NCBI GenBank assembly: GCA_040222015.1
Contig: JAVJWO010000164.1
Span: 1 to 13,606 of the forward strand
Source: Coleofasciculus chthonoplastes F2-STO-03
GTDB lineage: Bacteria > Cyanobacteriota > Cyanobacteriia > Cyanobacteriales > Coleofasciculaceae
Reading direction: 5' to 3'
DNA: 13,606 nt
The notes beneath the pieces are model-generated. The model saw only the letters and a program-made list of their open reading frames with translations. It was not told the DNA's origin and searched no databases. The position numbers and the translations under genes are program-made. This document shows positions 2,550 through 13,524 of the stretch, piece after piece (the first letter of the stretch is position 1; every line of letters begins with the position of its first letter).

Positions 2550-4265
2550 TTAGAAAGGTTGAAAAAGAATGGAAAAGGTAATCCCATTGTCTTGTAGAGA
2601 ACCGCCTTCATCCTCAACGCTATTTAGAGGAATCCCCCAATAAAGTTGGGCTGACCACGATGGATCGCGTTGCCACAAAAGTCCTAACCCAATACTGGCT
2701 AAGGTGTTAGGATTAGTAACCTCACCCTTGTGGTTCCAAACGGTGCCAATATCGAAAAAAGGAGCAATTTGGACAGTCCCAATTCCCTCCGGTTGGCGGA
2801 TAATTGGTAAACGAACTTCCACGGAACCAATAATTCCATTGTCAGCCACGCGCTGATTTTGGCGATAACCTCGTACTGTATCAATTCCGCCAATATTGAA
2901 CTGTTCTAGCGGTAAGAGAGAATCATGAGAGAGTTGCGCTCCAGCGCGAGCAATAATAATACTATCTTCACCTAAAGCTTGCACCCATTGAAACTGTCCC
3001 ACCCAACTCATAAACCGCCCATCTGTACCCGTGTCATTGATTGTGGCGTCAAATGCATTCAAGCCAAAACTAAACTGCGATCGCGCGGCTAAGACGCGAT
3101 CGGTTGAACGGTTGAGCCAGTCTTGACTAAACCGCAATACTGTGACTTTCGATTCCCCATCTTCGGGTCCCAGAGAAAAGGAAAACGGGATATCATCCAG
3201 GACAAAGGTTTGGCTTTGACGCAAATCCAGAGACAAGGAAAGGGCAAAGTCACTCGTTGGCGTATGGACAATCGGTTGGCGAAACCCCACGGAAAAGGTT
3301 TCTGAGTTGGAGTTAATATCTAAGACCGAAAACGGATCTTCAACAATATCACTATCGCTATGGTTGTAGCTGAGACTTAACGTACCATCCCTGGGATTGA
3401 GGGGAACTTCATAGCTCAGACTATACTGATCCACCCCTTCAGTTATGCCATAATCGGCACTTATGCGATCGCCTAATCCCAATAGATTCTGATTCTCCAC
3501 CCTCACTGTTCCCCCCAAGGAACCGACACTGGGAGAGTCTCGATTCTCTATAGTCACAGAACTCATCCAAGGGTTTGCCTCTTCTAGCTGTAGGTTTAAC
3601 ACACTGGTTCCACCCATGGTTCCTGCTGATAACTCGGCTTGAATTTGATCCAGTATCGGATCAAGTTGCAGCAGTTGCAACGCCTCCTCCAAACGACGAA
3701 TATTCACCGGGGTTTGCGTCGCCAACTGAATCCGCGATCGCACGTAATCATCCCGCAAACGCTCTAATCCTTGAATCTCAATGCGTTCGATGCTCCCTTC
3801 AACCACCTGAATTCTCACCACACCATCGGTAATATCCTGAGACGGAAGAAAAGCACCTGAGGTGGTGTAGCCATTGTCCGTATATAACTCGGTAATTGCC
3901 GTGCGAATCGCTAAGAGTTCTTCAAACGAAGCATTTTGACCAATAAAGGGCGCAACAACCGCTTGCAATTCAGCCGGGGAAAAAACAGTACTCCCGAGTA
4001 CCTCGACTCGTTCAACCGTGACATTAATCTCCAAATCGGGTACTGGCGTCAGGGGTGTTCCCGGCGTTGGTGTGAGTGGGGGAAGAGGTGGGGGCGTCTC
4101 TGGGGGCGTCGTTGGTAAAGAAGGCAGATTGGGACGAGTGGGTTCCAGGATACCTGGTGGAATATCTGGATTAGTTTGACTCATCGGTGGTAAGTCCTGA
4201 GCTAGGGCGGTACAGCTCCAGCTCAAGTACACCAGATTTAAAGTCCAAAGAAACCGTTTAAACAT
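2550..4265 (-). CDS. TpsB / ShlB-FhaC-HecB family outer-membrane secretion-activation protein (POTRA + beta-barrel)
   Basis: Signal peptide (MFKRFLW...ALA|Q), Pro-rich linker, POTRA (VERVEVLGSTVFS...YTDNGYTTSGA...VRIQVVEG), conserved VRGY loop-6 motif, APFFDIG, terminal Phe. ATG 4265 preferred over TTG 4280. Confidence 0.93.
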   Translation of the reverse strand: MFKRFLWTLNLVYLSWSCTALAQDLPPMSQTNPDIPPGILEPTRPNLPSLPTTPPETPPPLPPLTPTPGTPLTPVPDLEINVTVERVEVLGSTVFSPAELQAVVAPFIGQNASFEELLAIRTAITELYTDNGYTTSGAFLPSQDITDGVVRIQVVEGSIERIEIQGLERLRDDYVRSRIQLATQTPVNIRRLEEALQLLQLDPILDQIQAELSAGTMGGTSVLNLQLEEANPWMSSVTIENRDSPSVGSLGGTVRVENQNLLGLGDRISADYGITEGVDQYSLSYEVPLNPRDGTLSLSYNHSDSDIVEDPFSVLDINSNSETFSVGFRQPIVHTPTSDFALSLSLDLRQSQTFVLDDIPFSFSLGPEDGESKVTVLRFSQDWLNRSTDRVLAARSQFSFGLNAFDATINDTGTDGRFMSWVGQFQWVQALGEDSIIIARAGAQLSHDSLLPLEQFNIGGIDTVRGYRQNQRVADNGIIGSVEVRLPIIRQPEGIGTVQIAPFFDIGTVWNHKGEVTNPNTLASIGLGLLWQRDPSWSAQLYWGIPLNSVEDEGGSLQDNGITFSILFQPF

Positions 4266-4388
4266 AAAACAGTAGCGCAAAGGTCATCGGTTGACAAGGA
4301 TGCAGAGAAACCCCGGACTGTTTTAAGCGTATATTTACCAAAAAAATTAATTTATACCACAAAACATTCATGCTAGGTAATATTCTTT

Positions 4389-4527
4389 TAAGTAGGTTGG
4401 TGGAAATAAACTCAACCTTATGAAGTTATGTAAATATACCTCAAACCCTTACATAAACATAAGACATAAGACATAAGACGTAGCTTGCTTCTTTTCGGGC
4501 AGCGAGTTCTCCGCCGTTTTCTACTTA
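4389..4527. mobile_element. Putative MITE-like dispersed element (~139 bp) with an internal (ACATAAG)3 tract
   Basis: Inverted ends TAAGTAG (4389-4395) and CTACTTA (4521-4527), with weak further inverted similarity (GGTGGA / TCCGCC). Internal sequence is shared with 2483-2527. ACATAAG x3 at 4457-4477. No transposase in the window. Confidence 0.45.
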
Positions 4528-4704
4528 TTTCTTGTTCTGCTTTCACCATCAGTTACCGGAAAAAATAAAATATAGTGGCAGATTAGAAGACTGTTTATCC
4601 CCTGTTTTTGACCATTGATCAACCCTGAGACCTTCAAATTCAGACCTGCCAGTTCAGATAGAAATTGCTTAAGATAGAGTTAATCGTTATCGTTGTTCCG
4701 AAAA

Positions 4705-7299
4705 ATGTCCCACGGTTGGCAGATTTGGCGTCGATTTATTGGATTATCTTTAGCCAGCCTTGTCTTTTGTATCAGCTTTCATTCCTGGTCTACTGGGCAA
4801 GCCGAACCCGCGACAGAAATTCAACAACAGCAATTACTTACACCGGCTTCTGAAAAACAGCTGGTGTCCAAGGGAATTGCATCCTATCAAATCGGAGAAT
4901 TCTCCCAAGCCATTAACTTATGGGAACAAGCCTTACCTCAAATTACCGACGAAAATGATCGAGCAATTGTTCACAATAACCTGGCGTTAGCCTATCAGCA
5001 AACGGGGGAACTGGCTCAGGCGATCGCGCACTGGGAAAAGGCGATCCAAATTTACCAGGCTTCACCGGATGCCGAAAACCAGAAACGGATCGCTGGGCTA
5101 TTAACGGAACAAGCCCAAGCTTACAATGATTTGGGACAACATCCGCGAGCGATTACTCTCTTAGAGTCAGCCATTGAACTCGCCACTGAATACCCAGATT
5201 CCCTAGCAGAAGCTGCCGCTCAAGGCGCTTTAGGCAATGCCCACTGGAGTGTAGGCAACTATGATCAGGCAATTGCCGCCCACAAACAGAGCCTAAAAAT
5301 TGCCCGCGCCTTGAATAATAACAGTTTTATCGCCACGGCTTTAAATAACGTGGGGAATGTTTATGTCAGTAGAGCCAGCCGATCAAGTTATCAGGCGCAG
5401 GTAGCTGAGTTAGAAGGAGATCTCGAAGAGGCGACACGCTTAACCCAAGAGGCGCTTCAGGATTGGACGCAAGCGAGAACATTCTTTGAGCAAAGTCTGG
5501 AAACGGCGCAAGCCTTAGGAAGTTTAACCGAAATTAAAGCCTTAATGAATTTAAATCGCTGGGTGATTAGTCGTCATTGGGCCAATGTCGCTGACAACTC
5601 AGCCGAACCCTTGAGTGAGGACGATCAGGCATTTCTCCAGAGCAATTGGCAACGAGTCAGAGCACTCCTCCCTGGAATACCTGATTCACGACAGAAAGCC
5701 TATACCCTGATTCACCTAGCCGCAAGTTTTCAACAGATCGAGTCAGAAGCTTCAACTCAGGAGTCGATCCAGCTTTTAACCCACGCTTTAACGATAGCCC
5801 AAAAAATAGGCGATGCCAAAGCCCAATCCTTTGCCCTAGGGAGCTTAGGACAGGTGTATGAATCAGCCGGAGACTACAGCACGGCGATGAATTTAACCCG
5901 CCAAGCTGAATTTAGCGCCCAGCAAATTCAATCCTCTGATAGTTTATATCGCTGGCAATGGCAAGCCGGGCGGATGCTAAAAGCCAGAGGTAATATCGCC
6001 TCAGCCATTTCCGCTTATGAACAAGCGATCGCGACGTTGCAAAATATTCGCGGCGATTTAGTCGCCAATAAAGAATTACAACTAGATTTCCGGGAACAGG
6101 TTGAACCCGTTTATCGAGAATTAATTGATTTGCTCCTCAATGCTTCCAGTCGCGATTTGAGCGATCCTAACTCCCAGGAAGAGGTTTCACCCCTGAAAGA
6201 GGTGCTCGATATCGTCGAACTGTTCAAACTGGCAGAGTTGGAAAACTTTTTCGGCGATGAATGCGTGCAAATCGCCAAAGACAAAGCTCAAAATGAGGAA
6301 GGGTTAGCGGATGCCAATGCTGCTGTCATCTATTCAATCATTTTGAACGATCGCACCGAAATGATCCTGCGATCGCCCGATGGTTCCCTGAAAAACTATC
6401 CTATCCCCATCAGCAAGGAAGAGATGGAAGCCGAGATTGAGCAGCTACGCTACTTTCTGGAACTACGCACCACGGAGCAGTATATCCCCCAAGCACAGAA
6501 AATTTATAATTGGCTGATTCGTCCCCTGGAAGCTGATTTAGCCGTCATGCAACCCAAGACGTTAGTCTTCATCAACGATGGCGTCTTGCGTCAGATACCC
6601 ATGAGTGCGCTGCATGATGGTCAAAACTTTTTGATTGAGAAGTATCCCATTGCGATTACTCCCAGTCTGTCATTGACCACCAGCCAACCGTTAGATCGCA
6701 ATCAGTTAAGAGCGCTGAGTCTGGGTTTAACTGTTGCCAGACCTCCCTTTGCCGCTCTCACAAATGTAGAAGCTGAGCTAAATGTGGTTGAAGAAATCTT
6801 AGGCGGGACTGAGTTAATTAATCAGGACTTTACCTTCTCGAACTTGCAAGCCAAACTACGACGCAAAAATTTTCCCGTGGTTCACATGGCAACCCATGGC
6901 AAATTTGGTGTAGATTCCCAGAGTACATTTATACTGGGTTATGATCAACAAATTAGTATTGAACAACTCGACAATCTCTTGCGTTCTCGCGGTCGTCGAG
7001 AAGCGGTCAAACTGCTCACCTTGAGTGCTTGCCAAACCGCGACAGGCAACAATCGTTCCGCGTTAGGAATTGCGGGTGTCGCTGTTCGAGCGGGTGTTGA
7101 GAGTGCTTTAGCGACGTTGTGGTATATCAATGATGAAGCTACCGTACCACTCATTGCCGAATTTTATCGCCAACTGCGCCAACCTGACATCACTCGGGCA
7201 GAAGCGTTAAGACAGGCACAGCTTAAGATGATTTCTAATGTCAATTATAATCATCCAGGGATTTGGTCGCCGTTTATTCTGATTGGCAATTGGCGTTAG
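4705..7299 (+). CDS. Exported TPR-repeat + CHAT (caspase/HetF-like) cysteine protease
   Basis: Signal-like N-terminus (RRFIGLSLASLVFCISF...GQA|E), multiple TPRs (e.g. NNLALAYQQTGELAQAIAHWEKA), and CHAT motifs DGVLRQIPMSALHDG, VHMATHG (His, 6895-6897), LTLSACQT (Cys, 7030-7032), ATLWYINDEAT, HPGIWSPFILIGNW. Alternative TTG start at 4693. Confidence 0.93.
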   Translation: MSHGWQIWRRFIGLSLASLVFCISFHSWSTGQAEPATEIQQQQLLTPASEKQLVSKGIASYQIGEFSQAINLWEQALPQITDENDRAIVHNNLALAYQQTGELAQAIAHWEKAIQIYQASPDAENQKRIAGLLTEQAQAYNDLGQHPRAITLLESAIELATEYPDSLAEAAAQGALGNAHWSVGNYDQAIAAHKQSLKIARALNNNSFIATALNNVGNVYVSRASRSSYQAQVAELEGDLEEATRLTQEALQDWTQARTFFEQSLETAQALGSLTEIKALMNLNRWVISRHWANVADNSAEPLSEDDQAFLQSNWQRVRALLPGIPDSRQKAYTLIHLAASFQQIESEASTQESIQLLTHALTIAQKIGDAKAQSFALGSLGQVYESAGDYSTAMNLTRQAEFSAQQIQSSDSLYRWQWQAGRMLKARGNIASAISAYEQAIATLQNIRGDLVANKELQLDFREQVEPVYRELIDLLLNASSRDLSDPNSQEEVSPLKEVLDIVELFKLAELENFFGDECVQIAKDKAQNEEGLADANAAVIYSIILNDRTEMILRSPDGSLKNYPIPISKEEMEAEIEQLRYFLELRTTEQYIPQAQKIYNWLIRPLEADLAVMQPKTLVFINDGVLRQIPMSALHDGQNFLIEKYPIAITPSLSLTTSQPLDRNQLRALSLGLTVARPPFAALTNVEAELNVVEEILGGTELINQDFTFSNLQAKLRRKNFPVVHMATHGKFGVDSQSTFILGYDQQISIEQLDNLLRSRGRREAVKLLTLSACQTATGNNRSALGIAGVAVRAGVESALATLWYINDEATVPLIAEFYRQLRQPDITRAEALRQAQLKMISNVNYNHPGIWSPFILIGNWR

Positions 7300-7304
7300 T
7301 TATT

Positions 7305-7332
7305 TGTTCATAGTTGATGGTTCATGGTTGCT
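7305..7332. repeat. Degenerate heptamer tandem repeat
   Basis: tgttcat-agttgat-ggttcat-ggttgct immediately after the CHAT stop codon. Confidence 0.5.
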
Positions 7333-7339
7333 CAAAAGA

Positions 7340-7372
7340 GGGAGTAGGGGTATTTGGTATATCCCTACTCCC
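7340..7372. terminator. Stem-loop between the convergent CHAT and DUF928 genes; probable intrinsic terminator
   Basis: GGGAGTAGGGGTAT-ttggt-ATATCCCTACTCCC, 13/14 paired plus one G.T; followed by TCTTTT on the minus strand. Confidence 0.7.
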
Positions 7373-7436
7373 GATATTGTGCTACTGTTCACGCTCTACC
7401 CGCTTTCCCTTCAATTTGGCAGACTGAATTAGACAG

Positions 7437-8288
7437 CTATGGTCTTTTAGCAACATCAAGCCGTTCTTGTTGCGTGACTTGAGTCAAGCCAACTTGCTCA
7501 AGCAGAGCCAGAAAATCATCGTTGATGCCTAGCTCATTAGAATTCGCGGTTTGAACGTTGGACATCGCGGCTAAGGCATCGTACCAAAGCCCAGTCTCAG
7601 CATAACTCCAAGCGCGATCGCGCCACACCTGTGTTGGTACATTGCTCTTAGCAGGAGTTGACAGCCGTTGGGTTTCTAAAGCGGCTGGTGTGGATACCCG
7701 CTCAATCCAGCTAATAAATACGGGATTAGCCGACGGACGCTTGGTATTACAAACCAGAGTGACTGACCATTTGTAGGTTCGTCCAGTTTGCAATTCTGGA
7801 CGATCTTTGGGCACTTGCAACTGTATCATCCCGGCTTGGGGAGAGTCTATCTGTTTCTCAAACAGCGGTTTCGCCACTCCGGGTTCTACTAAAGCAAACC
7901 GCATGGGTACAGAGACAGGCTGTGATAAGTGCCAGAAAAAGGTAGGATGACCTGATATCGTTTGTCCAGCATACTCCTCGGATGGGATCAACAATGTGAC
8001 TAAATCGTTGGTTAACGATTGGCGACAGCCGCGTGAACCCGAGCCGATTGTCCGCCGTGGGTTACTTGCCACGGGTGGTATATATTGTTTAGACGAACGA
8101 TGGGTTGACGTTTTGTTTAACTCTGCGTTGGCAGGTAGATCGTTCCAGATCGAAGTCAGAATTTCTAAATTCTTCGACGACGAAAAAATCCGTGGTTCAG
8201 GTAGGTCGAAAAAGCCGAACATTTGCAGGGAAACAATTGAAGCTGTCCCGGCAATGATCGTTACTATTTTTTGCCGAGTGGTGTTCAT
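7437..8288 (-). CDS. DUF928-family exported protein
   Basis: Hydrophobic N-terminus plus family-typical YIPP...PRRTIGSGSRGC, GQTISGHPTFFWHL, YKWSVTLVCN, SWIERV, YAETGLWYDAL and LLEQVGL. AAGGA upstream of the ATG. Confidence 0.88.
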   Translation of the reverse strand: MNTTRQKIVTIIAGTASIVSLQMFGFFDLPEPRIFSSSKNLEILTSIWNDLPANAELNKTSTHRSSKQYIPPVASNPRRTIGSGSRGCRQSLTNDLVTLLIPSEEYAGQTISGHPTFFWHLSQPVSVPMRFALVEPGVAKPLFEKQIDSPQAGMIQLQVPKDRPELQTGRTYKWSVTLVCNTKRPSANPVFISWIERVSTPAALETQRLSTPAKSNVPTQVWRDRAWSYAETGLWYDALAAMSNVQTANSNELGINDDFLALLEQVGLTQVTQQERLDVAKRP

Positions 8289-8420
8289 GAGATTAATTCC
8301 TTCGTTTCATAAGGGTCTTTTACAAAGGTTTGAGATGTGATGCACCTACTCTAGCTGGTGAAGAATTTTGCCTGAAACATTTTGGACTCAATAGCGCTAT
8401 TGGCTGGCAAAATCTAAATC

Positions 8421-8426
8421 ATTATA
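8421..8426 (-). promoter_or_regulatory. Candidate -10 element (TATAAT) for an internal DUF928 promoter
   Basis: Perfect TATAAT on the minus strand in the cyclase-DUF928 gap. No recognisable -35 element. Confidence 0.25.
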
Positions 8427-8443
8427 CATGGCATTTTGAACAA

Positions 8444-10375
8444 CTACAGCAAAATTTGATAAACGGCGGTTAACTGTTCGCGCCCTTTGAGTCTCACCTG
8501 ACCAATTTGTTTCGTGGGGAATTGATTGTGTAGATGCTGGTATGTTTCGTCATTGATTAAAATCCGGCAAATTCCTCCATCGAGCGTTTTATCGTAACTT
8601 TCTAATCGAGCCGCTACATTTACGCTATCTCCTAGGGTGGTGTAGTCAAGCCGTTGAGCATTCCCCAAGCTACCTGTGACGACATCTCCGGTGGCAATTC
8701 CCACACGCATTGCTGTCTGCGGATAGCCTTGACGTTGCCATTCTTGATTTAGGGTTTGCAGTTTTTGTGCCATGGATAATGCACAGTTTACCGCCGCGAT
8801 CGCATCCTGGTCAATTTCCTCAGATGTCGTGCGTTTAATCGGCACACCAAACACAGCCATAACTGCATCTCCGATAAACTTATCCACAACACCGCCATGA
8901 TCTAGCACCGTTCCCGCCATGGCATCCATATATTGGTTCAGCCAAGCCATCAGCACTTCCGAACCCATATTTTCTGCTACTGTACTAAACCCTTTCAGGT
9001 CTGAGAACAGAACCGTGGCAGTCATCTTCTGACCACGTAGACGTCCTTCTTTGAGAAGTTGTTCGCGATCGCGCCAAATTGCTTCGGCGATTTGCTTCGT
9101 TACATGGCGACCGAATAAATTCATAACTGTGTGTCGCTCTTCACGCTCGAAATTGGCGATGTACCCTGTCGTTGCTGTAGCGGCACCCAATAACGCCAAA
9201 GCTGGGGGAATCACAGGAATCCACCAACTGCTGATGATAAAGGCTAAGTAGCTGCTCCCGACCAGACCGAAAAGTGCGAACAAAAGGCTGATTACTGTCC
9301 AACGTGGCAATAATTTAGCCAAACCTCCAGCATCTCGCAAAACCCAACACAGGGTTGCACCCGTCAAAGACCAGAGGAAAATCCAGATCCCTTCGATTGG
9401 TTCCGACCAAGTTTTTAGTCCAGAACGCCCCTCTAGGGCTGAACTCAGCAAGTGACTAATCATGTTAGCCTGAACTTCTATCCCAGGTGTGCGCTCTTGG
9501 GTGGCAATTTTATCACCACTGTAGGGGGTATAGAAGAAATCATTCAGGCTAGTTGCCGTTGCCCCAATTAAAACGAGGCGATCGCGCATTAAGTCTGGTG
9601 GTATCCGGTCTTCGAGTACCTCTGTCAATGACACCCTGGGAAAGGTACGAGCCGAACCCTTATAGTTTAACAAAATCTGGTATCCCCCGTCATCAGCACT
9701 CACATAACCACCGTCATTTGCTGAAAAAGGTTGAAACGTCCCCTTTCCTAAATGAATCATTAGGGGATTCGTTTGGGAGGGTTGAGATATGATTTCTTGC
9801 TCTGCTAAATACATCAACGCCAGTCTCATCCCAAAAGAGACGGTGACTTGATCGTTGTCTAGCATATAAAGCAATGATCGACGCAGCTTACCATCCGCAT
9901 CAATCACCACGTTATTAAACCCAACTTGTTCGCGTTGATCTAGCACGGGTGCGGGAGCCACACTAGCGCTAGGATCGTGCTGATTAATTTTTTCTATCCC
10001 GATTAAATTGGGAGTTGTTTCAAAAACATTGACTAATTCGTCATGACCGGGCAAAACCGGTAAATCTCGATACAGGTCAAGACCAATCACTCTCGGGTTT
10101 TGCGCTTTAATTTTTTTGAGGAGTTCAGCCAGGACAGCATCAGGAATGGGCCACTGTCCGACCTTTTTAAGATCCGCCTCACTAATTCCCACGATTAAAA
10201 TTCGCTCATCCACAGGTTCTTGGGGACGCCAGCGAAAATATTGGTCAAGAGCTGCCCATTCCCAAGTCTGTAAAAAGCCGAGCAGCCGCAATAGGATAAC
10301 AAGTCCAGCCACACCAGGAGCAACCGTCCAGACGCCTCGCCCTGCCCAAATTTTTTGTCTAAGGTCTTTCCACAT
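8444..10375 (-). CDS. CHASE2-domain membrane class III adenylyl cyclase
   Basis: N-terminal TM, CHASE2 (ILIVGISEADL..GQWPIPDAVLA, IGLDLYRD, DADGKLRR, VLIGATA, PGIEVQANMI), three TMs, and a cyclase domain (LFSDLKGFS, VDKFIGDAVMAVFG, RVGIATG, DYTTLGDSVNVAARLES, LKGRE). Confidence 0.94.
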   Translation of the reverse strand: MWKDLRQKIWAGRGVWTVAPGVAGLVILLRLLGFLQTWEWAALDQYFRWRPQEPVDERILIVGISEADLKKVGQWPIPDAVLAELLKKIKAQNPRVIGLDLYRDLPVLPGHDELVNVFETTPNLIGIEKINQHDPSASVAPAPVLDQREQVGFNNVVIDADGKLRRSLLYMLDNDQVTVSFGMRLALMYLAEQEIISQPSQTNPLMIHLGKGTFQPFSANDGGYVSADDGGYQILLNYKGSARTFPRVSLTEVLEDRIPPDLMRDRLVLIGATATSLNDFFYTPYSGDKIATQERTPGIEVQANMISHLLSSALEGRSGLKTWSEPIEGIWIFLWSLTGATLCWVLRDAGGLAKLLPRWTVISLLFALFGLVGSSYLAFIISSWWIPVIPPALALLGAATATTGYIANFEREERHTVMNLFGRHVTKQIAEAIWRDREQLLKEGRLRGQKMTATVLFSDLKGFSTVAENMGSEVLMAWLNQYMDAMAGTVLDHGGVVDKFIGDAVMAVFGVPIKRTTSEEIDQDAIAAVNCALSMAQKLQTLNQEWQRQGYPQTAMRVGIATGDVVTGSLGNAQRLDYTTLGDSVNVAARLESYDKTLDGGICRILINDETYQHLHNQFPTKQIGQVRLKGREQLTAVYQILL

Positions 10376-10598
10376 CTTATTTTTTTTTAGCGCTCCTTGA
10401 TGGTTAGAAAGCTAGATCTCTCTCCTTACTTTACTTTATTCAAGGGCGAAGTAATTGGAACAGAAAAACTGGGTTAGAAGGAATAAATTATTACAAAAAC
10501 TTTAAATTTGCGCTTTCTGGAATACCATTTTTGGAAAATTATCCCTGATCAAGGCGCATCGCTATCATTGGTGTCAACTTAAGCTGAAAGCAATATTC

Positions 10599-10620
10599 CA
10601 GACGTGGCATGGCACGTCTG
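10599..10620. repeat. Short palindrome, REP/SDR-like
   Basis: CAGACGTG-gcatgg-CACGTCTG, a perfect 8-bp inverted repeat. Confidence 0.6.
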
Positions 10621-10631
10621 AAAGCCGGGGT

Positions 10632-10696
10632 GTAGGGGCGGGTTTTACCGATAACATTTTTTCACAAACCGATAATTTGACTAAACGTGCCCCCAC
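10632..10696. repeat. GTAG-type REP-like inverted pair
   Basis: GTAGGGGCGGGTTT (10632-10645) versus AAACGTGCCCCCAC (10683-10696), 11/14 complementary. Internal direct ACCGATAA at 10647 and 10668. Confidence 0.55.
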
Positions 10697-10710
10697 TCAG
10701 GGAGCCTGTC

Positions 10711-10747
10711 AGTTTTGCCCATAAGTTCAAGTCGGTTGGGTAAAACT
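10711..10747 (-). terminator. Hairpin just downstream of the tpsA stop (terminator or mRNA-stabilising stem)
   Basis: AGTTTTGCCCA ... TGGGTAAAACT, 10/11 complementary, 15-nt loop. No clear U-tract. Confidence 0.35.
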
Positions 10748-10757
10748 ATCACGAAGC

Positions 10758-13250
10758 CTATTTCTCTTGCGATGCAGCCTGATAGCAGATTAAATCATCC
10801 GCATTCGCGATCGCTACCAGTTCCGGAGCCGTACCCACGACTACACGTCCATCAGACGTTACCATCATACCCTGAGCTTCTTGAATTGGGTCGCCCGGTT
10901 TCCAGAAACTGGGGGTTGAGGATTGGGAATTGACCGTTGGCGCAGTGGCTTGTTGTCCAGCATCGCCAGTAATTCCCTGAACCTGAGTGACGGAATAGCG
11001 ACCTGATAGAGGATCATAGGGGTTATTCGGTAAACCACCTGTACCTGTAACGATAAAGCTACCTTGCTCCTTGTTGCGGTGGGTGAGACAACTATCGGCA
11101 ATCACTTGCTCCGGCGGCAGAAAATTGGTCGATAGTGGCGAGAGGGAATCTTGATTCAAATTCAGAGAGGATATGAATATATTCCCAATCGTGCCGCTAC
11201 CCAATGCCTCAACTGAAATATCCACTCGGTCATTACCCCGAAATGGTTCAAAGGAACCTGGGTTGCGACCTACAGGTGTCCCTTGACCACTAGAGAAAAA
11301 GTCTGCCAGAAACACGGGAGAGATAATGGTGATATCACCGCCCCTGCCATCAAAGGCATTTGCCAGAATATCACTATCTTCTAGAGCTATAAACACATCG
11401 GAGTTAATGGTAATATTTCCACCACCACCGACACTCTCAAAAACACTGGCACTAATCAAGCTACCGTCGCGTAGACGAATATCTTCAGCATTGATGTCAA
11501 TGTTACCTCCCCCTGCTTGATCTGAGGTTGCCCTGATTTCTCCGCCATCTCGGAGTCTTAGGTTATTGGTAGCAATAGCTAAATTTCCTGCATCACCCGT
11601 TCCTTCGCTGGAAACTTCCAATCGACTGGGCAGACGCTGACCATCTTCTCCTAAACCATTACCAAGAACTTCTACAGTATCTGAGGCGCTTACCGTTAAC
11701 GTTCCACCCTGACCTGCACCCGAGGTCGCCGCTGATACAATTCCTCCATCTTGAATCCTCAAGTTATTGGTAGTAATCATTAAATTTCCCGCATCGCCAA
11801 TTCCTTCACTGGAAGCTTCTAACGTACTGGGATTCATCTGACCTTCCATACCAATACCTGTACCCATGATTTCCACCGAATCCGAGGCATTGACTATTAT
11901 CATTCCACCCTGAGCCGCATCAGATGTCGCGGCTGTTAACTTTCCCCCGTCCTCAATGATTAGTCGTGCTGTAGTAATCTCTAAAGTTCCAGCCTTTCCA
12001 TTGGTTTGAGTGTTAACTCTTAATTCACTCGCATCGACGATTGGGGAACTGCCACTTATTTGTACTGATTCAGAGGCAGTTACAGTTAAGTTTCCACTGC
12101 GACCTGTACTAACAGGACCTTTGAAGATTGGAAGTGAACTAGTAGATATTTCAGCTCCATCCCGAACAATTAACTGCCGAGTATTAACGTTTATGTTTCC
12201 TGCATCTCCGTCATCTCCCGTAATCGTGGTTATACTGCTAGACCCCAGAATATCTGAAAATCCACTCAGTTCTACTGATTCTGAGCCAGTCACGACGACA
12301 GTTCCGGCTGGGACTGACCCAAACGTGAAAGAAGAAATTTTTGAGCCATCGGTGAGGGTTACTTGTCTGCCTTGTACTTGAATATCTCCACTACCGATAT
12401 CTCCACTATTAAAATCCGGTAAAGGACTCAGATCGGTTACATCAATGATAGCCCCCTGGGATAGATGAATATTCTTGAACGTCTCAACCTCCTCATAGCT
12501 TAGAGCCAAACCTTGGTTCGTTGGGTTCAACGTAACCAGACTGTTACTACCAACACTTCCTACTGCAATCAGTCCACTTGGTGCGGTTAGATTACCGCCT
12601 TCTAAAATCACTTCACCGCCCACAAGTGCTAAACTTCTATCTGCATCTACTCTCAAACCGGCAGGAGCTTCAAAACCATTAAATTGTTCCTGCATATCAC
12701 CCCGACTTGCTTGAGAGCGGTTAATAATACGTCCTGGGGAATCTCCAAATTGCAGTCCTACAGGAACACTGACGGTCAGTACCGATGAGGCTGAGGGATT
12801 AGTGGCGCTGAACTCTGTGTCATCGGCAAATTCTACACTATCGGCTGTGCTGGCAATAAAAGAACCACCTAAATCTAGGGCAGCTTCAGCACCAAAGATA
12901 ATGCCATTGGGATTGAGAAGAAATAAATTAGCATTACCTTGTGCTTTGAGTAAACCATCAATGTTTGAGATTGAATCCCCGGTCACACGGCTGATAATGT
13001 TTTGAACGGTAGAAGTGTTGTCAAACCAAGCCGATCCACCTGTCGGCACGGAAAACTCATGAAAGCTATGGAAAAGGTTTTCTCCGGCTTGGCTGCCTCC
13101 AGTAATAGTGAATTGAAGATTGTCTGAACTATTAACATTTGTGGGTAATGTCCCATCTGGGACAACTTGCCCTTGAACGGAGCTGACTGAAATTAGAAAG
13201 CAATAGGGAAGAGTTTGAAGTAACCAGAATGGATAGGAGTGTCGTTCCAT
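10758..13250 (-). CDS. TpsA filamentous-haemagglutinin-family exoprotein (TPS domain + beta-helix + cyanobacterial C-terminal domain)
   Basis: Signal peptide (...VQG|QVVPDGTL), TPS motifs NLFHSFHEFSV, NIISRVTG and NLFLLNPNGIIFG, repeated GDAGNL/GGNI beta-helix turns, and C-terminal SFIVTGTGGLP and IQEAQG. GAGG 7 nt upstream of the ATG. Confidence 0.93.
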   Translation of the reverse strand: MERHSYPFWLLQTLPYCFLISVSSVQGQVVPDGTLPTNVNSSDNLQFTITGGSQAGENLFHSFHEFSVPTGGSAWFDNTSTVQNIISRVTGDSISNIDGLLKAQGNANLFLLNPNGIIFGAEAALDLGGSFIASTADSVEFADDTEFSATNPSASSVLTVSVPVGLQFGDSPGRIINRSQASRGDMQEQFNGFEAPAGLRVDADRSLALVGGEVILEGGNLTAPSGLIAVGSVGSNSLVTLNPTNQGLALSYEEVETFKNIHLSQGAIIDVTDLSPLPDFNSGDIGSGDIQVQGRQVTLTDGSKISSFTFGSVPAGTVVVTGSESVELSGFSDILGSSSITTITGDDGDAGNINVNTRQLIVRDGAEISTSSLPIFKGPVSTGRSGNLTVTASESVQISGSSPIVDASELRVNTQTNGKAGTLEITTARLIIEDGGKLTAATSDAAQGGMIIVNASDSVEIMGTGIGMEGQMNPSTLEASSEGIGDAGNLMITTNNLRIQDGGIVSAATSGAGQGGTLTVSASDTVEVLGNGLGEDGQRLPSRLEVSSEGTGDAGNLAIATNNLRLRDGGEIRATSDQAGGGNIDINAEDIRLRDGSLISASVFESVGGGGNITINSDVFIALEDSDILANAFDGRGGDITIISPVFLADFFSSGQGTPVGRNPGSFEPFRGNDRVDISVEALGSGTIGNIFISSLNLNQDSLSPLSTNFLPPEQVIADSCLTHRNKEQGSFIVTGTGGLPNNPYDPLSGRYSVTQVQGITGDAGQQATAPTVNSQSSTPSFWKPGDPIQEAQGMMVTSDGRVVVGTAPELVAIANADDLICYQAASQEK
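11547..11948 (-). repeat. Tandem 201-nt (67-aa) internal duplication in TpsA
   Basis: GGKLTAATS...NNLRIQD (11948-11748) and GGIVSAATS...NNLRLRD (11747-11547): 42/67 identical residues by hand count, ungapped. Confidence 0.85.
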
Positions 13251-13326
13251 ATAAGTACCTCAGGGGTTAATAATAAAAGTCTAACAACTTAAACCCCACC
13301 AAGGCTTCAATCACTTCTAATTGCCT

Positions 13327-13524
13327 TCAGTAACACCGAGTCCACCACCCTGAACACTGTAGACCATTTGCTGTGGTCGCATCCTCTATCTGCTGTTGAG
13401 GATTTACAGGCTGGTCTTGCCTAACTCTATTCTCCATGGTGGAATTGGCAGAAACAGGAGCTGCGCCAACTTGAGTAGAAAATGTTAAGCTGAGAGCGAT
13501 CGCGGTAGATGCAACGAGTTTCAT
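13327..13524 (-). CDS. Small secreted protein / candidate peptide precursor (65 aa) with a C-terminal CSGWWTRCY
   Basis: ATG at 13524 with GGAG 9 nt upstream; classical signal peptide MKLVASTAIALSLTFSTQVGAAPVSA; co-oriented and 76 nt upstream of tpsA. The ORF-track GTG start at 13575 is less likely. Confidence 0.72.
   Translation of the reverse strand: MKLVASTAIALSLTFSTQVGAAPVSANSTMENRVRQDQPVNPQQQIEDATTANGLQCSGWWTRCY

Follow-up and report, generated by a model that had tools for sequence, protein, structure and literature searches.

A recurrent cyanobacterial module of TpsA, CHAT, DUF928 and CHASE2 genes with a candidate allele-specific peptide signal

The agr system of Staphylococcus contains a peptide-receptor polymorphic block. 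A comparable block in Bacillus, comQ-comX-5'comP, is described as being exchanged between strains (PMC6334282). In Sinorhizobium, NsrA relays an outside protein signal over the outer membrane to the CHASE2 cyclases CyaK, CyaD1 and CyaD2 (PMC7529298, PMC13001267), and this is the nearest tested pathway to the one considered here. Among the TpsA proteins of two-partner secretion (TPS), HxuA binds a protein ligand, the C-termini of HMW1 and HxuA are expected to remain periplasmic and disulfide locked, and LapG cuts the CdrA tail in that compartment (PMC5422565). In Magnetospirillum, the gene after mtxA encodes a CHASE2 adenylate cyclase, and an mtxA mutant is reported to lack a phenotype in standard assays (PMC4439547). 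Here we analyzed a window of 13,606 nucleotides, the whole of contig C164 (JAVJWO010000164.1) of Coleofasciculus chthonoplastes F2-STO-03 (genome G000), in which six adjoining, uninterrupted open reading frames (ORFs) spanning positions 2550 to 13524 encode a small peptide, TpsA, TpsB, a CHAT protease, a DUF928 protein and a CHASE2 cyclase. This genetic system is real and fits none of the families tested; its mechanism we infer.

The locus resembles each described system in part. As in ComQXPA and agr, conserved flanks enclose a single polymorphic block made up of the peptide gene and the adjoining portion of a presumed receptor gene, with several types in one sample. However, the host is Gram negative, the locus Pfam matches include no ComQ/AgrB-type enzyme and no ComP/AgrC-type receptor, and the co-varying partner is TpsA, whereas the membrane sensor CHASE2 is conserved and does not co-vary. 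Any likeness to peptide quorum sensing is probably one of how the systems work only. A CHASE2 adenylyl cyclase is shared with the NsrA-CyaK pathway, but NsrA is a beta-barrel receptor responding to a plant protein signal, whereas this locus has TpsA/TpsB, CHAT, DUF928 and a self-encoded peptide; the sole barrel at the locus is TpsB by Pfam, and the two systems are set apart on that assignment rather than on a direct comparison with NsrA. As for CdrAB/LapG and HMW1/HxuA, the C-terminal Cys pair of TpsA is predicted to be periplasmic and a periplasmic protease is associated with it; here, however, the protease is a CHAT domain, elsewhere often fused to the TpsA C-terminus, and the Cys pair is spaced 100 residues apart. 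No LapG-type protease or LapD receptor was found by Pfam in the locus, which is the part of the genome that was searched for either. The main features of the locus are as follows.

2550-4280, minus strand: TpsB, with POTRA domains and a ShlB barrel (Pfam).
4693-7299, plus strand: CHAT protease with signal peptide and TPR part (Pfam; dyad H735/C780 and an extra conserved C524).
7437-8288, minus strand: DUF928 protein, predicted to be exported, with an Ig/FnIII sandwich and TPR-like helices in an MtxA-like fold (Pfam, model).
8025-8045, minus strand: DUF928 arm motif G82-x-G-S-R86-G-C88, a candidate for cleavage by CHAT or for binding to CHASE2 (conservation of G84, R86 and G87).
8444-10375, minus strand: CHASE2 sensor with membrane helices and a class III cyclase (Pfam, catalytic residues).
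10758-13250, minus strand: TpsA, 830 residues, with signal, TPS domain, beta-helix and two-Cys tail and without a toxin tip (Pfam TPS, AlphaFold2, Foldseek).
10761-11153, minus strand: TpsA C-terminal tail (about residues 700-830), predicted periplasmic anchor and TPR-CHAT docking site (invariant C721 and C822).
11991-12710, minus strand: allele-variable TpsA region (residues 181-420), candidate peptide-binding face (allele entropy, divergence).
13327-13524, minus strand: 65-residue prepro-peptide with a predicted signal peptide, polar pro region and variable C-terminal tip (sequence; no Pfam family).
13330-13374, minus strand: hypervariable tip (residues 51-65), aromatic rich, with two Cys and a predicted disulfide loop; candidate signal (identity drop; assembly breaks at 13376).

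We propose that these genes encode an allele-specific peptide signalling chain, a reading to which we give about an even chance of being right. The peptide would be exported and closed by a disulfide bond, and once secreted it would dock on its own TpsA, a surface-exposed filament, at the variable face. The periplasmic TpsA tail, docked to the TPR part, would then switch on the TPR-CHAT protease, which would cut the DUF928 arm after R86, and the cut DUF928 would contact CHASE2 and change the cyclic AMP (cAMP) output of the cyclase. The signal would run outside-in and may serve in kin or density sensing among filaments, as a 'kin nearby' message. The weakest parts of this mechanism are the proteolytic step and the direction in which the signal runs.

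The peptide ORF is preceded by a purine-rich ribosome-binding stretch and matched no family in a Pfam scan. Mean pairwise identity was 0.89 in the first 50 columns and 0.30 in the remainder of 24 peptide sequences, which are representatives of 90%-identity clusters, so that the distinctness of the tips is partly built in. Two Cys residues occur in 19 of the 22 distinct tips, and seven tip types were found among ten copies in nine same-genus genomes. The contigs of 4/4 sequencing runs break or diverge at 13376, the border of leader and tip, and run X7 carries several differing continuations past this position, showing that several tips coexist in one sample. The only other variable gene is tpsA, with 72-97% identity among same-genus alleles versus 87-98% for the other four; its identity is minimal in residues 181-420, while residues 701-830 are 84-99% identical. 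Synonymous divergence reached 0.67 for the tip and 0.45-0.54 for TpsA residues 28-560, two to three times that of the peptide leader (0.13) and of CHASE2, DUF928, CHAT and TpsB (0.13-0.25). To judge from these sequences, the peptide tip and the TpsA N-terminal half are an old polymorphic block exchanged between strains. Old balanced alleles are typical of conflict loci, and many same-genus tips are cationic and aromatic (Trp/Arg rich) with a Cys pair, as expected if the product were a small antimicrobial or competition peptide with the cognate TpsA allele as protective binder or detector. We consider this improbable, given that the tips in other families are neutral and rich in Pro and aromatic residues, that no immunity-type gene or dedicated transporter adjoins the locus, and that the downstream genes are those of signalling.

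The association of peptide and TpsA extends beyond the genus. A search of 301 genomes, limited to three scored candidates in each, identified 13 genomes beyond the genus with a close TpsA. Nine of these, from three other families, have a signal-pro-tip ORF upstream of TpsA, with unrelated leaders and with Pro/aromatic tips whose end is at or close to a Cys; one has a contig without upstream DNA, and three have more distant TpsAs without a peptide. A peptide lies upstream of 12 of the 13 TpsAs that score at least 380 bits against the N-terminal half of the window TpsA (the thirteenth has one by eye), compared with 3 of 147 TpsAs below 380 bits (0/42, 3/54 and 0/51 by bin; background, 0.0034 per window). 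When the three cases that shaped the peptide-finding rule are excluded, the peptide is present at 9 of 10 TpsAs of at least 380 bits. On a quick tree built from 63 of 158 rows, a single clade (SH-aLRT, 96) gathers the TpsAs that have a peptide; 14 of its 15 rows have the peptide, the exception being the one without upstream DNA. Where TpsAs of the clade occur in tandem, each copy is paired with a peptide of its own (twice each in L197, L202 and G000), and among four tandem TpsAs in L208 just the clade member has one. Beyond the clade, the peptide-bearing outliers L076 and L169 suggest repeated recruitment of peptides. In six other-family genomes (L199, L200, L202, L203, L205 and L207), peptide, TpsA, CHAT, DUF928 and CHASE2 all lie on one strand. 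Searched as a profile against 1.84 billion representatives, the peptide alignment returned six matches, namely, one of its own input sequences, three peptides that are more distant and two unrelated long proteins; the leader is too lineage specific for a profile search to reach other families.

Among the peptides, signal-pro-Cys sequences with unrelated leaders also stand upstream of more distant TpsAs in L076, L150 and L169. In L204 and L206, the ORFs upstream of TpsA are small and acidic (81 and 85 residues), without signal peptides; by eye we take them to resemble leaders of precursors of ribosomally synthesized and post-translationally modified peptides.

Tip similarity between alleles tracks TpsA residues 181-420 (Mantel rho, 0.70; p, 0.001; 8 loci). 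It does not follow TpsA residues 28-180, which lie nearer the peptide gene (rho, 0.17), nor DUF928, CHAT or TpsB, nor CHASE2 (rho, 0.12; p, 0.28). Among the nine other-family loci plus the window, TpsA residues 301-420 gave a rho of 0.61 (p, 0.008). The preliminary description of this DNA had raised the option that CHAT matures the peptide, which then directly binds CHASE2. In its favor, peptide, protease and sensor share one strand in the six genomes named above, and L003 and L008 have the same tip type and a CHASE2 insertion. Nevertheless, the CHASE2 proteins are 91-98% identical across unrelated tips and do not track them, L012 has a related tip with a 643-residue sensor of no added length, no conserved cut site precedes the tip, and peptides duplicate with TpsA and not with CHASE2. 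We regard a direct CHASE2 ligand as very improbable. Since the peptide tracks TpsA and not CHASE2, it is more likely a TpsA ligand than a CHASE2 ligand or CHAT product, and binding of some kind between peptide and TpsA is likely.

As in TpsA proteins of two-partner secretion, the locus TpsA has a signal peptide, a TPS domain and a beta-helix. The AlphaFold2 model is a beta-helix up to about residue 650, with a tail of pLDDT under 50, and its top Foldseek match is HxuA (4rm6). Alternating positions on four stacked strands form a variable face with an entropy of 1.62 bits, compared with 0.82 for other polar strand positions (24 alleles); in later rungs, this face averages 0.59. Outward residues in this part of TpsA are placed at 304-310, 339-345 and 409-415, and the flanking loops of the four strands are also among the most variable parts. 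TpsA is predicted to be surface exposed with a variable face, and the earlier view that it is not a toxin holds, with no toxin tip present. A polymorphic toxin or contact-dependent inhibition system was ruled out: the C-terminal 130 residues are 84-99% identical and the next gene is the cyclase gene. In polymorphic toxins with Tox-Caspase tips (PMC3482391), a likeness exists in that the fused paralogues here join a TpsA-type filament to a C-terminal caspase-like domain, but the locus TpsA is the reverse of that arrangement, having a constant C-terminus and a variable N-terminal half or middle. Beta-helix repeat number differs among alleles at about residues 410-550, giving proteins of 693-831 residues. 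In L013, tpsA is split into two frames; the same allele is unbroken in L014 and L015.

All of the pairing evidence would fit equally well if the peptide bound its own TpsA without diffusing, either as a cell-tethered tag or as a cap or chaperone masking its own TpsA, with a signal arising on contact with another filament or on loss of the cap. By eye, a lipobox-like Cys closes the signal of the L199, L200 and L201 peptides and would anchor them to a membrane. On the other hand, the same-genus peptides have no Cys close to the signal end, and a private cap would have no need to diversify with the exposed face, yet a single sample contains several different tips. We judge a tethered tag or cap unlikely.

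The coupling of TpsA to CHAT was examined in the C. chthonoplastes F2-STO-03 genome, where a profile search recovered 36 TPS ORFs of 41 matches. Eighteen proteins fuse TPS to a C-terminal CHAT domain, 15 TpsAs stand alone and have a C-terminal tail containing exactly two Cys, and three are neither fused nor tailed. Twelve of the 15 tailed TpsAs, versus 1 of the 18 TpsA-CHAT fusions, have a long stand-alone CHAT no farther than 5 kb away (Fisher p, 1.4e-5, calculated on paralogues that are not independent). The TPR part is found in 0/18 fusions versus 11/11 controls, and no TPR family was detected in the five fusions scanned with Pfam. In the 12 split CHATs examined, the N-terminus is hydrophobic and an extra Cys stands directly before the protease domain. 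All 18 fusions lack this Cys, and 44 of the 47 long CHATs from other loci, a set that may overlap with the 12, have it. At the window locus the residue is C524 (6262-6264), confined to split TPR-CHATs, and it could form a disulfide with the TpsA tail or act as a cysteine switch. In the TpsAs, two Cys occur within the last 160 residues of 82 of 88 tailed proteins; in the window TpsA the pair is the invariant C721 and C822, about 100 residues apart. We infer that the tail and the TPR part stand in for the covalent TpsA-CHAT link, and that CHAT works in the periplasm beneath a surface filament; the coupling postulated before this analysis is supported by the division between tailed TpsAs with a TPR-CHAT neighbor and fusions without tail or TPR. 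The CHAT His/Cys dyad (H735 and C780) is invariant in 29/29 aligned domains, in support of the earlier assignment as a protease, and proteolytic activity is predicted from these motifs. A sequence search of solved structures gave no match for the CHAT profile or CHASE2.

The same tail admits the opposite direction of flow, namely, inside-out adhesin control as in CdrAB/LapG, in which CHAT would cut the TpsA tail for release, CHASE2 and DUF928 would set protease activity, the face would bind polysaccharide, cells or phage, and the peptide would merely hitch-hike. The two-Cys tail (82/88) resembles the HMW1/HxuA anchor, in a family where LapG cuts the CdrA tail (PMC5422565), lectin-like laminin G domains occur in 2 of 5 TpsA-CHAT fusions scanned, and co-variation is weak among distinct tips. 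However, in the 18 fusions CHAT takes the C-terminal place and leaves no tail for cleavage, as would suit a receptor that carries a tethered effector, and adhesin control leaves unexplained both the one peptide per TpsA copy in four families and the constant leader with its variable tip. We consider this alternative quite unlikely. The two fusions with an inserted laminin G domain, L089 and L090, suggest glycan-sensing receptors.

The DUF928 model is an Ig/FnIII sandwich plus helices, the sandwich packed on TPR helices as in MtxA. MtxA (4z29) is its best fold match (Z, 9.7; root-mean-square deviation, 5.2; 163 residues aligned; 12% identity; next row, 6.0), with a Foldseek TM score of 0.56 by target. 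Sequence identity to MtxA is 12-14%, and the Atlas lead of 0.81 has MtxA families on 14-15% of members; Atlas matches for the peptide and DUF928 were all below 0.9. Like mtxA, the locus encodes an exported Ig-plus-TPR protein beside a CHASE2 cyclase, but at 12% identity and with a short N-terminal arm carrying a G-x-[ST]-R-G-C motif. In this flexible arm, G84, R86 and G87 are present in 104 of 105 aligned rows, and a small-small-x-R motif near the start of the DUF928 domain was found in 15/25 and 30/35 proteins versus one and one in control windows. Metacaspases and orthocaspases (family C14) are reported to prefer Arg/Lys at P1 (PMC5756287), but this CHAT clade is not known to do so, and the arm motif may therefore be either a cut site or a binding motif. 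A contact between DUF928 and CHASE2 is probable.

Class III adenylyl cyclases share two metal-binding Asp residues, purine selectors (Lys plus Thr/Asp), an Asn and an Arg. All are located in the locus cyclase (D459, K499, D503, T579, N586 and R590), and the set fits an ATP-specific, ATP-type class III enzyme. The earlier assignment of the cyclase as the output has to be modified, in that several outputs interchange with it: in other families, the arrays that carry the peptide have a histidine kinase output in 6/6 cases. In the CHASE2 proteins, L003 and L008 share an aromatic insertion of 13-20 residues, and the sensor of L012 is of normal length and lacks it.

The linkage of TpsA, CHAT, DUF928 and CHASE2 that had been suggested for this locus proved to be conserved. 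The C. chthonoplastes F2-STO-03 genome has 25 DUF928, 23 CHASE2, 41 TPS (above cut-off), 68 CHAT and 7 ShlB matches. Within 5 kb of the 25 DUF928 genes lie CHASE2 at 12 (random-placement mean, 0.75), CHAT at 14 (2.2) and TPS at 6 (1.3; 4/2000 shuffles equally high), while ShlB is near just one (0.22; 405/2000 shuffles equally high). DUF928 was detected in 39 of 121 genomes sampled from the phylum, and one DUF928 locus was surveyed in each of the 32 of 38 other genomes with listed coordinates. CHASE2 lies within about 10 kb of DUF928 in 25 of these 32 genomes, CHAT in 10 (some being CHAT-CHASE2 fusions), TPS in 8 and ShlB in 4. A locus scan with the TpsA alignment, covering 7 of 64 database parts, gave at least 76 loci, many clipped by contig ends, with CHAT in 34, DUF928 in 22, CHASE2 in 19 and ShlB in 7; the DUF928 alignment was too divergent to serve as a query. 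TpsA, CHAT, DUF928 and CHASE2 are therefore a recurrent cyanobacterial module, in which these counts make DUF928-CHASE2 the tight core and TpsA-CHAT a frequent input. TpsB has POTRA domains and a ShlB barrel, as in two-partner secretion, and the locus TpsA would be exported through it by analogy with known families. Its place in a dedicated signalling set, as first proposed, was ruled out on weak linkage in the F2-STO-03 genome, the 32-genome survey and the TpsA loci; with 7 ShlB per 41 TPS and no enrichment beside DUF928, it is probably a shared exporter. Four tandem DUF928 genes lie on contig C25 (5026-9186), and further pairs are found on C22, L055 and L059.

Several observations weigh against the proposed signalling chain. 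Three of the 22 distinct tips have no Cys at all, and no conserved basic residue or cut site ahead of the tips was seen in the peptide alignment. The pN/pS ratio (nonsynonymous to synonymous polymorphism) is below 1 throughout and gives no sign of positive selection, and the TpsA faces were set by secondary structure rather than coordinates, the positions being chosen after the entropies had been seen. The peptide-finding rule was fixed post hoc, after examples had been seen, three of which shaped it, and a cruder filter did not rise above background (4 found versus about 4.7 expected). Co-variation was lower with 12 loci, three near copies being left out (rho, 0.33 and 0.25; p, 0.02 and 0.04; partial given residues 28-180, 0.46 and 0.37), and lost significance when a single locus represented each tip type (10 loci; rho, 0.20 and 0.03; p, 0.17 and 0.40; partial, 0.39 with p of 0.04 and 0.20 with p of 0.15). 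In the other-family set, the TpsA C-terminal half correlates as well (0.46; p, 0.03). The peptide and TpsA genes adjoin, so shared transfer accounts for part of the co-variation, and paralogues and related genomes are non-independent data. The majority of DUF928-CHASE2 loci have no TPS (8/32 with) or CHAT (10/32 with) nearby, and the same-family genome G016 has peptide, TpsA, CHASE2 and DUF928 without adjoining CHAT or TpsB. Finally, a second peptide-TpsA pair in the F2-STO-03 genome (contig C166, 83-2893; L097) has a different tip and no sensor genes beside it; it is followed by a repeated element and by DNA placed in another locus in five relatives. Contigs C164 and C166 both branch off contig C27, and C166 is therefore either a second copy or a sign of strain mixture.

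The six intact, contiguous genes described at the outset are all present, with Pfam matches above curated cut-offs for the five long proteins, and their order is retained in seven of eight same-genus genomes, the eighth contig stopping after the peptide. Their contiguity stands but they are not a single operon, because the CHAT gene is on the opposite strand, convergent with DUF928 and divergent from TpsB. Envelope targeting of the products, likewise claimed, is predicted from sequence for the locus proteins. Among 16 other same-family genomes searched, one has the peptide. Promoter and terminator scans at the locus were no better than chance, and four RNA-labelled runs cover intergenic DNA evenly, with long contigs, and so give no evidence of expression. 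The gene run is bounded by the contig end on one side and on the other by trkA-like and glycogen-synthase-like genes. A short intergenic element with an inverted repeat at about 10590-10700 has many copies genome wide. The flanking genes, which are replaced by other DNA in one relative (L003), are as follows.

103-846: TrkA-type gene, ordinary flank.
993-2471: glycogen synthase gene, ordinary flank.

The remaining described relatives are EACC2-caspase systems, in which EACC2 and a caspase are fused before a variable C-terminal domain, together with TRADD-N or ECF sigma/DUF1822 genes (PMC8195603). They likewise combine a caspase-like domain with CHASE2 and cover CHAT-CHASE2 fusions, of which three occur elsewhere in the F2-STO-03 genome. 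Membership of the locus was ruled out, since its CHAT is C-terminal behind TPRs in a separate signal-bearing protein and its CHASE2 is fused to the cyclase. The available main text of PMC8195603 makes no mention of DUF928, hemagglutinin or two-partner secretion, and the available part of bioRxiv 10.1101/2021.11.05.467447 adds nothing on the system. One open-access paper was found to contain DUF928, noting a CHASE2 neighbor (PMC5587647). The open-access literature, as searched apart from subscription papers and supplements, yielded nothing joining CHASE2, CHAT and two-partner secretion and no cyanobacterial peptide pheromone linked to hemagglutinin; the supplements of PMC8195603 and PMC3482391, outside this scope, may list such neighborhoods. 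Within it, we did not find the constant-leader, variable-tip peptide, its marking of a TpsA clade, the one-strand arrays, the swapped block, the split between tail/TPR proteins and fusions or the DUF928-MtxA fold.

More broadly and tentatively, at somewhat less than even likelihood, filamentous cyanobacteria may use strain-specific peptide pheromones read by two-partner-secreted filaments that act as trans-outer-membrane receptors. The approximately 33 tailed or CHAT-fused TpsAs of the F2-STO-03 genome would then be a receptor repertoire converging, via caspase-like cleavage of DUF928, on CHASE2 cyclases, kinases and cyclic di-GMP enzymes, and DUF928/MtxA-like proteins would be the missing protein ligands of CHASE2. 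The natural alleles, with tips of about 15 residues, predict a matrix of cognate versus non-cognate responses with cAMP as the read-out. If the proposal is true, it would mean Gram-negative peptide communication with allelic 'dialects' in mat-building cyanobacteria. TpsA proteins would gain a part in signalling, the numerous caspase-like proteases that cyanobacteria export (the F2-STO-03 genome gives 68 CHAT matches) would gain a function, and CHASE2 sensors would have a candidate protein input.

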